The notes under the pieces: generated by a model | Database searches by the model: none | The model's input: only the letters and a program-made list of their open reading frames with translations | Told to the model about the DNA's origin: nothing | Made by a program: the position numbers and the translations under genes | Shown here: positions 45,791 through 48,223 of the stretch, in pieces | Position numbering within the stretch: the first letter of the stretch is position 1 | How the letters are laid out: the number at the start of each line of letters is the position of its first letter | Source: Minisyncoccota bacterium | Lineage (GTDB): Bacteria > Patescibacteriota > Minisyncoccia > Minisyncoccales > CG1-02-41-26 | Direction of reading: 5' to 3' | Length of the DNA stretch: 64,000 nucleotides | Assembly (NCBI GenBank): GCA_028718785.1 | Contig: JAQULB010000003.1 | Location: forward strand, 8,788 to 72,787

Positions 45791-45964
45791 TAAGAAAATC
45801 GCCCCGTTCTTAATCAGAACCGAGCTTATCTATACTTTATCAAATAAAATAATCTTTGTCAAATTTGTATGGACTGGGTTCAAAAAAAGCGTATCAATCT
45901 GTGCCGACTCGCCTTGCTGGAGCCTTCGGCGTAGCGCAGGTTGGCCAACTTTGACACACTTTAT

Positions 45965-46405
45965 TTAATAATCTCCAATAGCGTTTTTAGTGTGGCGGAC
46001 AATATAATCACTGAGGGTGTTAAAGATAATTGCCACAACATCAATTTGTTGGTCAATATCTAATGGCAGTTTTTTAAAAGATAGGTAAATTTGGGCCATT
46101 TTTTGCAATTGCTTGGTTTTGTGAAAAGTTATTTCATCCTCTGGTAAAAATTCAGATTTTGCGAAGGGCCTGCCCTGAGCAGTTCGGCGTAGCTCACTGC
46201 GAAGGGTTTTTACTTCCACAAAAATAAGCACTCCTTTCTTTTTTGCAATAATATCCAGCTCGCCCCATTTTGTTTTAAAGTTTCTCTCTAAAATTTGATA
46301 ACCCTCTTTTTTTAAATAATTCGTGGCAATATCCTCTCCAACTTGCCCAATTTTTTGCCTCTGGTTTTGCATATTTTGAATTGGTGGACCTGGGCGGAAT
46401 TTCAC
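45965..46405 (-). CDS. yraN: YraN/UPF0102-family endonuclease-like protein
   Basis: ...WGELDIIAKKKGVLIFVEVKTLR... is the YraN signature. Confidence 0.6.
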   Translation of the reverse strand: MKFRPGPPIQNMQNQRQKIGQVGEDIATNYLKKEGYQILERNFKTKWGELDIIAKKKGVLIFVEVKTLRSELRRTAQGRPFAKSEFLPEDEITFHKTKQLQKMAQIYLSFKKLPLDIDQQIDVVAIIFNTLSDYIVRHTKNAIGDY

Positions 46406-46487
46406 CCTGTTAAATAAAATTTGTGCTCAAATTTTAATTTTAAATTAGCAAATTTAAAATTATTTAACGGGGCGGGCCGCCATCTTT

Positions 46488-46558
46488 TGGACCTAGTGAG
46501 AATCGAACTCACGTTTCCGCAATGCGAATGCGGCGCGCTACCACTGTGCTATAGGCCC
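46488..46558 (-). tRNA. tRNA-Ala (anticodon CGC)
   Basis: Reverse complement GGGCCTATAGCACAGTGGTAGCGCGCCGCATTCGCATTGCGGAAACGTGAGTTCGATTCTCACTAGGTCCA. G3:U70 identity pair, anticodon loop UUCGCAU, T-loop GTTCGATTC. No encoded CCA. One D-stem mismatch. Confidence 0.7.
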
Positions 46559-46564
46559 TGATTA

Positions 46565-46771
46565 TTATTTTTTGTCTTCCATTAATTTTAAGGCAACCAA
46601 TAAGGCAATAAAGGCAATTGAAATCATCCCAGAGGTTAGTATAAGTTTGCCAATAATTGTGTTATCAAGATTCGTTTGAAATCTTGTGCTCCACACATTC
46701 AAGAGCATCATGGCTGTGAAAAATGCGCCGAATGCCACGGCAATTAGAGCAATAATTCTTTTTATTTTCAT
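46565..46771 (-). CDS. Small membrane protein (two TM, 68 aa)
   Basis: MKIKRIIALIAVAFGAFFTAMMLLNVW...ISIAFIALLVALKLM. Confidence 0.4.
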   Translation of the reverse strand: MKIKRIIALIAVAFGAFFTAMMLLNVWSTRFQTNLDNTIIGKLILTSGMISIAFIALLVALKLMEDKK

Positions 46772-46772
46772 G

Positions 46773-46995
46773 TTAGAAATCGTTAATGAGCGACCCAGTT
46801 TGGCTGGGGAGTGAATTTACGAGTTCTTACACCCTGTGGAGTAGTTTTAAATTTTTTACTAAAAATTTAAAACAGAAATTTGCCCTACAAATTTCTACTC
46901 CACGGGGTAAGTTCTCCGTAAATTTCAAGCTTCGCCTCATTCAGTAGAATGACCTACTGGGTTGACGGCTCGCTTTCAATAACGGATTACTTAAA
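46773..46995 (+). repeat. Nested-palindromic repeat family, copy 3 (full-length, about 220 bp)
   Basis: GAAATCGTTAATGAGCGA-[cccagtttggctgggg]-AGTGAATTTACGAGTTCTTACACCCTGTGGAGTAG-TTTTAAATTTTTTACTAAAAATTTAAAA-CAGAAATTTGCCCTACAAATTTC-TACTCCACGGGGTAAG...CTTCGCC...GGCTCGCTTTCAATAACGGATTAC. Confidence 0.75.
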
Positions 46996-48223
46996 TTTTA
47001 TTGCTTTCAATCTTTTGCCTTATACTATCAACAAATTGTTTGAAAAACCAGAGGTTGTGATAAGTTAAAAGTCGTTGACCAGTTGTTTCCCCTGCTTTAA
47101 AAAGATGGCATAAATAAGCTTTGGTGTAGTTTTGGCAAGTGGGGCAATTGCATTTTGGGTCAAGCGGTTTTTTATCTTGAGAAAAAATTGTTTTGCTAAT
47201 GTCAATATTTCCCAAAGAAGTAATGGCCACATTGTGTCTGGCCATTCTTGTTGGATACACACAGTCAAACAAGTCCACTCCAGCTTTTATAGCTGGGATT
47301 AAGTCGTCTAAATGGCCAATGCCCAATAAATGGCGGGGTTTCTCTTGGGGCAATAATGGCATCACCCAAGAAAGCACTTTAATTAAATTTGTTTTTGAAT
47401 CCCCGTACGAAGAGCCAAAGCTTCCTCCAATTCCAAAACCATTAAAATTCATTGCGCCAATAAACTTAGCGCTTTGCTTCCTTAGCTTTTCATATTTACC
47501 CCCTTGAACTATACCAAATAAACCCTGCTTTGCCACGCCGTAGCCCTGAGCTTGTCGAGGGGCGGAGGCGGGTTCGCTAACTTTTAACTTTGCACTTTGA
47601 ACTTTTAACTCTCGTTGCTGTAGGCAACGAGTTGCCCAGCGGTGCGTTCTTTCCATTGCCTCTTTGGTTTTTTCGAGATTGTCCAACGGGGAAGAAGGTT
47701 GATCAAAGGCAAAAATAATATCGGCTCCCAAATCCTGTTGAATTTTTATTGATGACTCTGGACTTAAAAATTGTGGCGATCCATCTAAATGCGATTTAAA
47801 ATAAACCCCTTCTTCTGCAATTTTTACAAAGTGTGTCAATCCGTGCCGATCGGCCAACTTTGGCACACTTTTTGTTTTTGAGTTGGCAGGAATTTTTGAG
47901 GTTTTATGAGTTATGCCTGCTCCCAAACTAAACACTTGGAATCCGCCGCTGTCAGTGGCCACCACGCCATTCCAGTTCATAAATTTATGCAACCCACCCA
48001 TTTTTTTAATGGTTTTTTCGCCGGGCTGTAAATGTAAATGGTAAGTGTTGGCTAAAATTCCTTCAAATCCAATTTCTTTTATATCTTGAGAGGTTAAAGT
48101 TTTAATCGTGGCTTTAGTGGCCACAGGAAAAAAAGCCGGGGTATGCAATTCCCCGTGAGCTGTTTCAATTATTCCCAACCGTGCTTCTGACTTTTTTGAT
48201 TTTTTTGTAATTTCAAATTTCAT
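46991..48223 (-). CDS. tgt: Queuine tRNA-ribosyltransferase (tRNA-guanine transglycosylase), carrying two GC-rich in-frame insertions
   Basis: ...[36 protein letters not shown]... plus the C-terminal zinc site CNCPTCQNY. At 410 aa it is about 40 aa longer than typical; the extra segments sit at 47519-47605 and 47826-47880. Confidence 0.8.

Follow-up and report, generated by a model that had tools for sequence, protein, structure and literature searches.

How does a conserved enzyme encoded by an AT-rich bacterium come to contain GC-rich segments that are read in-frame? This question is raised by the tgt gene (queuine/guanine tRNA-ribosyltransferase) of a Minisyncoccota bacterium, a member of the Patescibacteria or candidate phyla radiation (CPR). 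The gene lies in a stretch of 64,000 nucleotides of contig JAQULB010000003.1 with a GC content of 0.38, which was analyzed as a whole and is called the window here. A first reading, made from the sequence alone, had described two GC-rich patches in tgt, had equated them with extra segments of the protein and had likened them to Rickettsia palindromic elements (RPEs), selfish repeats that insert in-frame into genes. The observation itself largely holds and extends further than first described. Comparison with orthologues and with other loci suggests that the GC-rich patches are in-frame hairpin repeats of the type known as RPEs or as repetitive extragenic palindromic (REP) sequences, an interpretation to which we assign a probability of roughly 70%. 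In the following, compared loci carry L numbers and Tgt proteins P numbers.

The GC-rich insert in loop 2 of Tgt

46991-48223, minus strand: tgt, 410 amino acids, apparently intact according to structure matches and alignment
47528-47572, minus strand: 45-nt GC-rich hairpin element, in-frame in loop 2 of Tgt, GC ~0.71, encoding 15 amino acids, coding strand CCCGCCTCCGCCCCTCGACAAGCTCAGGGCTACGGCGTGGCAAAG
47544-47561, plus strand: nested "GA-hairpin" module CCCTGAGCTTGTCGAGGG that forms the inner part of the 45-nt element, at its apex

The Tgt protein matches solved bacterial Tgt structures (best match E 8e-91), and its catalytic and zinc-ligand columns are invariant in the orthologue alignment. 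It is identical to a protein deposited from a metagenome-assembled genome (MAG) of Candidatus Pacebacteria (Patescibacteria/CPR), and its cluster, P0001, has a single member on a single contig. The gene order tgt - small transmembrane open reading frame (ORF) - (tRNA-Ala) - yraN - nusA is kept in relatives. Compared to the Tgt of Z. mobilis, two extra segments occur, amino acids 103-128 (loop 1) and about 22 residues within amino acids 205-231 (loop 2); Firmicutes-type Tgt proteins have loops of 9 and 13 amino acids at the two corresponding sites. Both patches thus overlap extra protein segments as originally proposed, but their boundaries had been drawn too wide, as the insert in loop 2 comprises 15 amino acids and the segment in loop 1 is common to all Patescibacteria. 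The patch at 47519-47605 is indeed GC-rich (0.62-0.65), whereas the one at 47826-47880 has a GC content of 0.40 overall and is GC-rich only in its 26-nt palindromic core.

In a DNA alignment with the nearest tgt orthologues (84% DNA identity) the flanks are identical, including the AT-rich stretch encoding RELKVQSAK(L/F)KV, and the window has 45 additional bases. The element is missing in the five closest orthologues (L082, L081, L084, L001 and L002), where the flanks are conserved. It recurs in two tandem copies in loop 2 of the L086 Tgt (P0008), one of which matches the window copy at 42 of 45 positions, compared to a DNA identity of 80% for the gene as a whole. In the Tgt of L087 (P0025), which shares 62-63% protein identity, the element occupies the same loop and both arms are identical. 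The same composite element was found on an unrelated contig, L183, with 43 of 46 matches (~93%), and a module equal to the inner GA-hairpin (CCCTGAGCTTGTCGAAGG) occurs in yraN of L081 as well as in L148, L183 and L199. The right junction in tgt always lies between ..GGCAARG and CARGG. When the loops were masked, the closest relatives of all three element-bearing Tgt proteins proved to lack the element, so at least three gains at one loop are more parsimonious than many losses. Judged by these alignments, the loop-2 insert appears to be a genuine and recent insertion.

An artefact of assembly or binning, in which chimeric reads from GC-richer organisms were joined to a CPR contig, would be compatible with the origin of the sequence from a MAG, with the single contig behind P0001 and with the presence of the elements in GC-richer environmental organisms. 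It is extremely improbable given that every insert keeps the reading frame, with a length divisible by three, and is bordered on both sides by orthologous CPR sequence. Moreover, the element occupies this tgt site in independent assemblies from other projects as well (L086 from ENA, L087 and L099 from JGI).

The sequence-only reading had proposed to map the insertion sites onto the structure, expecting surface loops. In the AlphaFold (AF2) model of Tgt, the predicted local distance difference test (pLDDT) averages 86.6 and falls below 50 solely at amino acids 113-129 and 224-226, which are the two insert sites; across the segment encoded by the 45-nt element it is ~54. The confinement of low values to these sites is consistent with exposed, flexible loops. 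According to the model, both inserts therefore map to low-confidence surface loops of an intact protein.

Related elements in yraN, pnp and intergenic DNA

45965-46372, minus strand: yraN, UPF0102 family (Pfam UPF0102, E 1.7e-22), start taken from the orthologue alignment
46163-46205, minus strand: GC-rich in-frame insert in yraN (..RSELRRTAQGRPFAK..), ~43 nt, whose plus strand forms the hairpin CCCTGAG-CAGTTCGGCGTAGCTCACTG-CGAAGG
53754-53804, plus strand: GC-rich in-frame insert of 51 nt (GC 0.63), close to the PNPase N-terminus (PSAGASTELGRMSSGQD), GA-hairpin family as in yraN, not listed by the first reading
45896-45962, no strand assigned: terminator-like palindrome just 3' of the yraN stop codon, with the arms of the tgt loop-1 element
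47828-47871, minus strand: imperfect 44-nt palindrome centered on CGATCG, distal half of Tgt loop 1, encoding a 13-amino-acid segment

Orthologues of yraN that are ~85% identical elsewhere differ between the peptides VEVKTL and EFLPEDE. At this position L082 encodes the AT-rich IKKPNSS without an insert and L081 a short RQAQGRP, while L084 and the window have longer segments with different apices. The DNA encoding RQAQGRP in L081 has a 16-mer, TCGACAAGCTCAGGGC, in common with the tgt insert of the window. On the plus strand the yraN segments take the form CCCTGAG-(apex)-CGAAGG, termed GA-hairpin here, with a tandem G·A internal loop. The insert in pnp, which is located ahead of the RNase_PH domain and is missing in L081, L084 and L001, matches the yraN insert at 31 of 36 positions (p~0.002, 500 dinucleotide shuffles).

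A third related segment is intergenic. About 35 GC-rich nucleotides (45908-45942, containing TTCGGCGTAGC) are nested exactly at the center, between CGA and TCG, of the palindrome downstream of yraN, and share a 14-mer with one mismatch with the yraN insert (p~0.006). The near-identity of the loop-1 patch of tgt to this intergenic DNA, as reported by the first reading, was borne out: the 17-mer GGCCAACTTTGRCACAC occurs at 45943 and 47852 only, and the split pattern GTGCCGA-N-GGCCAACTTTGRCACACTTT has exactly two matches, with a gap of 2 nt in tgt and of 35 nt in the intergenic copy (each 0/100 shuffles). The split pattern ties 45901-45962 to 47843-47871. The shorter motifs reported as shared, TTCGGCGTAGC (45925 and 46183) and GCCCTGAGC (46172 and 47543), are present but individually weak, as they were reached in 5 and 4 of 100 shuffles, respectively. 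They gain weight only through the evidence for the family as a whole, namely the matches of yraN to pnp and to the intergenic segment and the counts of GA-hairpins. For the pattern CCCTGAG..CGA(A/G)GG, observed and expected numbers were 3 and 0 in the window, 3 and 0.2 in CPR loci, 9 and 2.2 in metagenomic loci, and 0 and 1.0 in tgt loci from outside the CPR. A further match of the GA-hairpin pattern at 38451-38470, considered as a fourth copy, is located inside a DUF3732 gene, looks like chance and was rejected.

Could these segments be ordinary lineage-specific variable loops or low-complexity expansions, with motifs shared by coincidence or compositional convergence? Length variation at the two Tgt sites extends to all relatives, and the weakness of the 9-11-nt motifs and the chance match at 38451-38470 point in the same direction. 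This explanation is nevertheless very improbable and largely refuted by the identity of 42-43 of 45-46 nt in unrelated contexts, by the split match and by the similarity between the yraN and pnp inserts. In addition, when the ORFs of the window were compared to five syntenic relatives over ~14 kb, the only window-specific insertions of at least 10 amino acids with a GC content above 0.6 were those in yraN, Tgt loop 2 and pnp.

Distribution beyond the window

The GC-rich patches are probably copies of non-coding imperfect-hairpin repeats of ~30-60 nt that belong to at least two families, the GA-hairpins and a second one, termed family 1, besides which there are AT-richer palindromes centered on CGATCG. 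Family 1 has the architecture (A)CCCGCCT(T/C/A)CGCC, an apex of 2-20 nt, and GGCTACGGCGTGGCAA(A/G)G; its short form is CCCGCCT.CGCC-(variable apex)-GGCTACGGCGTGGCAARG. The consensus is 31-45 nt long, its basal stems have 3 and 4-5 bp, and the apex often forms a mini-hairpin of its own (CCCCTTCGGGG, CCGCACGTTTGCGG). Each element combines a conserved basal stem and a fixed internal loop with an apex that varies and in which further modules can nest.

A scan with the 18-mer right arm revealed the complete architecture of family 1 in at least 40 distinct metagenomic contexts, with unrelated flanks and contig GC contents of 0.33-0.68. Most of these copies are intergenic, and some are arranged in tandem arrays of 33-36-nt units. 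PheT contains two to three in-frame copies; IleS, where the orientation is opposite, as well as an ImuB-like protein and a prepilin-peptidase-like ORF also carry the element in-frame. Exact-sequence look-up of neighboring proteins assigned host contigs to Verrucomicrobiota, Opitutaceae and Deltaproteobacteria. Read directly, the family 1 consensus is free of stop codons in five of six frames; copies with a length divisible by three that fall into disordered surface loops, as in Tgt loop 2, YraN and PNPase, would accordingly be tolerated and translated.

Two of the metagenomic loci show further peculiarities. The PheT beta-chain of L127 (1353-3842), located on a low-GC contig, harbors an embedded NlpC/P60 domain besides its two to three GC-rich element copies. 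In L205 (1868-2277; contig GC 0.51), tandem arrays of 33-nt family 1 units stand beside another GC-rich palindrome (..CCTCGCAAAGACGG../..GACGAAGCAATCC..), the translation of which resembles SRTPRND/GDCPH segments in Tgt loop 1 of P0076, P0083 and P0094.

Within the compared CPR loci the elements are sparse. GC-rich 13-mers common to 43 CPR loci derived from orthologous genes and tRNAs only and were uninformative. In a census of peptide words in six-frame translations of ~730 kb of CPR loci, words encoded by the elements were rare outside tgt and yraN, which indicates a low copy number per 20-kb locus.

The palindrome in loop 1 of Tgt

The history of loop 1 differs from that of loop 2. In all Patescibacteria Tgt proteins loop 1 is ~30 amino acids longer than in other bacteria, and its proximal half is conserved as G.G...(G/S)K(I/V), so the extra peptide as such is ancient. 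Alignment of Tgt orthologues, suggested by the first reading for confirming the insertions, did so for loop 2, where the nearest relatives lack the insert, but identified the extra peptide of loop 1 as a clade-wide loop. Relatives thus do show the same extra segment in loop 1 with unrelated nucleotide sequence, an outcome named beforehand as speaking against inserted repeats; yet these relatives carry palindromes of their own there.

In the subclade of the window, the distal half of loop 1 is always encoded by a palindrome with its center between CGA and TCG, read as Asp-Arg (GAT-CG), and the arms differ between orthologues. The palindrome is nearly perfect over 44 nt in L005 and has a length of 40 nt in L087. 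In an ungapped alignment of the 11 orthologues 75.8% of cells were paired, compared to 47.6% in shuffles (0/500) and 30-37% with slid partners; as centers were picked by maximal palindromy, the paired fraction is somewhat inflated. Both sides had changed in 17 of 18 arm pairs, and the covariation score was 0.638 compared to 0.196 for shuffles and ~0.07-0.18 for slid controls. The fold z-score of the window palindrome is -4.4 on the plus strand and -2.4 for the sense strand of the mRNA; for the intergenic palindrome (45896-45962) it is -2.4.

These observations bear on a second explanation, which concerns the loop-1 palindrome only: a single ancestral hairpin of structured RNA or DNA in tgt, maintained by selection, the arms of which drifted by compensatory changes. 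It could possibly serve as an RNase III or regulatory site or as a protein-binding dyad. Center, codon phase and position in the loop are identical in 11 of 11 orthologues, and for palindromes which all share center and reading frame, one ancestral hairpin kept by selection or self-correction fits better than many independent insertions. The strong covariation agrees with this. We nevertheless regard a single ancestral hairpin as unlikely, as close copies are present outside tgt, 3' of yraN in the window and in L082, where the site orthologous to 45896-45962 is a 60-nt near-perfect palindrome (..CGTGTCAAAATTTCGTCGA and TCGACGAAATTTTGACACG.. on either side of the center). Related palindromes also occur in loop 2 of other Tgt orthologues; L088 has an identical 34-nt palindrome in both Tgt loops and P0004 contains LADRQ twice. 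In more distant Patescibacteria Tgt proteins the loop-1 hairpin was not found, and the choice of centers adds to the apparent pairing. Loop 1 may reflect either repeated replacement by palindromic elements or one maintained ancestral hairpin.

Further hairpins were noticed in this context. Two intergenic hairpins of the window (46401-46472 and 59321-59365) have the terminal inverted repeats CACCCTGTTAAAT/ATTTAACGGGG, and an element with identical termini is translated as VHPVKC..AKLFNRV in loop 1 of the Tgt proteins L088, P0015 and P0043. In KsgA (RrnaAD) of L081 (11630-12562), L082 (10563-11468) and L084 (16773-17654), three segments are variable, and for each of them the coding DNA is a long hairpin with a stem of 12-21 bp, from which in-frame hairpin inserts look common in the clade. 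The motif CGATCG is not over-represented in the window (four sites), and a repeat resembling the highly iterated palindrome HIP1 was rejected.

Comparison with known repeats

Rickettsia palindromic elements were reportedly described by Ogata et al. in 2000. RPE-1 is ~100-150 bp long and specific to Rickettsia. The elements of the window share with RPEs that they are palindromic in-frame repeats in housekeeping genes of a small reduced genome, that the proteins remain intact and that the inserts are surface-exposed; those in Tgt loop 2, yraN and pnp are in-frame in intact genes and missing from orthologues in L081, L082, L084 and L001. They differ in their length of 30-60 nt (45 nt in tgt, ~43 nt in yraN, 51 nt in pnp and 44 nt for the loop-1 palindrome, compared to 100-150 bp), in being GC-rich in an AT-rich genome, in their modular, nested construction and in forming families common to several phyla. 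Their host belongs to the Patescibacteria, and the distinction from RPEs drawn here concerns host and length. The proposed resemblance to RPEs therefore holds for in-frame palindromic repeats that are common to genes and intergenic DNA, but the elements are not RPEs. That they are selfish and mobile, as also proposed, is suggested by their distribution.

Yeast mitochondrial GC clusters and fungal double-hairpin elements are GC-rich mobile palindromes of ~30-50 nt in an AT-rich genome, some of which are in-frame (var1) and which are polymorphic between strains. They differ from the elements described here in residing in an organelle, in their sequence families and in their characteristic flanking duplications. 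We know of no link between yeast mitochondrial GC clusters and Y1 transposases.

A closer match is provided by REPs. Di Nocera, De Gregorio and Rocco (2013; PMC3733652) described REPs of 20-40 bp tagged by GTAG or CGTC in eight phyla, with variable and sometimes self-complementary loops and some families common to distant organisms. In their survey, Opitutus terrae (Verrucomicrobia) and R. conorii (with RPE-4 and RPE-6) had the largest numbers of REPs located wholly inside known genes; such REPs encoded ~10-30 amino acids and also occurred in tRNA synthetases and tRNA-modifying enzymes; REP-associated tyrosine transposases (RAYTs) of the Y1 type were proposed as mobilizers (PMC3733652). The present elements likewise are short GC-rich stem-loops; like REPs, which are mostly intergenic and downstream of genes, their metagenomic copies are mostly intergenic with a minority within ORFs, and the window includes a RAYT-like gene. 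Family 1 agrees in size with REP stem-loops (20-40 nt, stems of 5-13 bp, loops of 2-20 nt or longer if self-complementary). In contrast to REPs, copies appear few within the 64 kb, and the host is an AT-rich member of the Patescibacteria, a phylum outside the 2013 survey. The supplements of that survey contain none of the element peptides or DNA.

MITEs (miniature inverted-repeat transposable elements) in genes, such as enterobacterial elements of the RU/ERIC type (PMC2759123) and cyanobacterial Nezha, are also small non-autonomous inverted-repeat elements that occasionally occur in ORFs and add peptide. However, MITEs usually have 100-400 bp, terminal inverted repeats that match a parent insertion sequence, and target-site duplications. 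None of these was seen here: the junctions in tgt, pnp and the intergenic copy show no consistent duplication, and no parent insertion sequence was identified.

Against Rfam 15, the window, the region 45550-48000 (at E<=5) and 20 element-bearing metagenomic loci gave tRNAs and no other family; weak matches to RAGATH-34, rli49 and isrL were far below the gathering score. Neither the element sequence nor a report of such elements in Patescibacteria was found in the literature searched, which is no proof of novelty. The elements are best filed as intragenic REP-type stem-loops, the closest described kind, i.e. as a known phenomenon in a new lineage with a mobility mechanism that is presently a matter of inference.

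A RAYT-like gene and the possible mode of spread

60395-61108, plus strand: RAYT-like Y1 (HUH) transposase gene, 237 amino acids, Pfam Y1_Tnp 40.6 bits (cutoff 23), HUH motif MPNHFHLLL
60364-60398, no strand assigned: hairpin with a 16-bp stem directly upstream of the Y1 gene, with an inverted partner at 61116-61146 and an in-frame intragenic copy at 60595-60628

Among the 48 ORFs of the window with at least 100 amino acids, a Pfam scan identified one Y1_Tnp protein. Its gene is located ~12.5 kb from tgt, between a DHH-family gene and trigger factor, and the NCBIfam model that the protein matches best, REP-associated tyrosine transposase, gives 49.9 bits, short of the cutoff of 80. The flanking hairpin has the sequence ACACCGGT-AAG-ACCGGTGT, and the arrangement (60359-61150) resembles a REPtron. 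The GC-rich elements may spread by a transposition-like copy-and-paste of single-stranded hairpins, catalyzed in trans by a Y1/HUH transposase such as this RAYT-like one, and would then be selfish or neutral elements of no benefit to the host. We consider mobilization by a Y1 transposase, taken by itself, a tentative step.

Besides the shared center and frame of the loop-1 palindromes, several observations weigh against REP/RPE-type repeats mobilized in this way. The hairpin of the Y1 gene is not dispersed, was found nowhere else in the data and does not belong to a GC-rich family, unlike the usual pairing of REPs with their RAYT, so that the GC-rich elements have no enzyme assigned to them. 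A clear target-site duplication is absent, and the junctions are ambiguous by 1-3 nt. In predicted folding, the GC-rich inserts do not exceed shuffles of equal composition in stability (z -0.1 to -0.7), and thermodynamic stability taken alone is hence no evidence. The window contains just one family 1 copy and three to four GA-hairpins. The canonical GTAG of REPs is unpaired and terminal, whereas it is internal here, in an internal loop or apex flanked by paired segments, in three of the four GC-rich elements of the window (tgt, CGCCGTAGCC; yraN, GGCGTAGCTC; intergenic, GGCGTAGCGC); in the pnp element it has degenerated to CAAG.

Some of these features would also be expected if the copies arose without a transposase, by template switching during replication or repair and ectopic gene conversion between hairpin-forming sequences. 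Correction of quasi-palindromes and microhomology-mediated copying would favor loops which already possess microhomology resembling CGA or CAAGG. In line with this, the intergenic insert is nested precisely at a hairpin apex, left junctions recurrently follow ..CGA (Tgt loop 2, intergenic and pnp; too few for calling a target site), the right junction in tgt is constant, duplications are lacking, arms change while palindromes stay palindromic, and the two window copies of the loop-1 element are only 1.9 kb apart. But near-identical elements in unrelated genes of different phyla require horizontal spread and a copy mechanism independent of local templates, and Y1 transposases of the IS200/IS605 type, too, typically insert 3' of a short target without duplicating it. 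We therefore do not think template switching a probable origin of the elements, and REP/RPE-type repeats remain the preferred interpretation.

A bolder proposal is that of pan-bacterial, horizontally exchanged modular hairpin "nano-transposons", which would prefer hairpin apices and permissive protein loops and would be shared by episymbiotic Patescibacteria with possible hosts among Verrucomicrobiota and Deltaproteobacteria. We regard it as speculative and quite improbable. If true, shared variants would be possible markers of CPR-host associations, and the recurrent insertion into Tgt loops would reflect true target specificity.

Other features of the window

Between tgt and the gene for the CCA-adding enzyme, an ORF of 414 amino acids resembling alanyl-tRNA synthetase (weak tRNA-synt_2c match only) is located together with tRNA-Val and tRNA-Pro (48213-49630). 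This block is missing in L081 and L084 and replaced by a restriction-modification pair in L082.

An AT-rich repeat of ~150-190 nt occurs four times (44178-44335, 45597-45775 and 46769-46950 on the minus strand; 63015-63194 on the plus strand), directly upstream of a truncated comM, nusA, the small transmembrane ORF and the ORF that begins at 63190, with each copy ending at the ATG. The predicted fold is Y-shaped, with one small hairpin that is paired in all copies and has a different sequence in each, and no Rfam match was obtained. It could represent a mobile promoter or leader cassette or a cis-regulatory RNA. The comM gene appears truncated, as 43473-44180 encodes only the N-terminal 235 amino acids compared to ~511 in orthologues.

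The region upstream of comM (1-44180) looks like an integrated mobile and defense island. It contains genes for RepA (5056-6486), a relaxase-like protein, two coupling proteins of type IV secretion systems and a tyrosine integrase (17061-17744), as well as a type I restriction-modification system (23075-30545), DUF4062 and an ABC-3C system (36128-39783); its GC content is raised at ~11.5-17.8 kb. Three perfect direct repeats of 25 nt (TAATATAGTTATTTGACAACAGTAA) at 4757-4837, a short distance upstream of the RepA-like gene, are reminiscent of iterons. Repeats of 45 and 23 nt within the island (10696-14916) form inverted pairs (..CCTTGACAAATCAGG..) and recur at intervals of 1.7-2.5 kb.

Implications

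If the interpretation as REP/RPE-type repeats is correct, such hairpins have spread into the protein-coding DNA of Patescibacteria, a group with some of the smallest and most streamlined genomes known. They would then account for some of the puzzling differences in length and additional segments that conserved CPR proteins show. The inserts can mislead homology modeling, the definition of domain boundaries and marker-gene phylogenies of the CPR; their translations, among them PASA..GYGVAK, RQAQG and LADRQ, recur as apparent motifs. The near-identity of 30-45-nt elements in a CPR bacterium and in Verrucomicrobiota or Deltaproteobacteria may be a trace of horizontal exchange. Accompanied by hairpins of its own, the RAYT-like gene would offer a tractable system for studying how the elements move.

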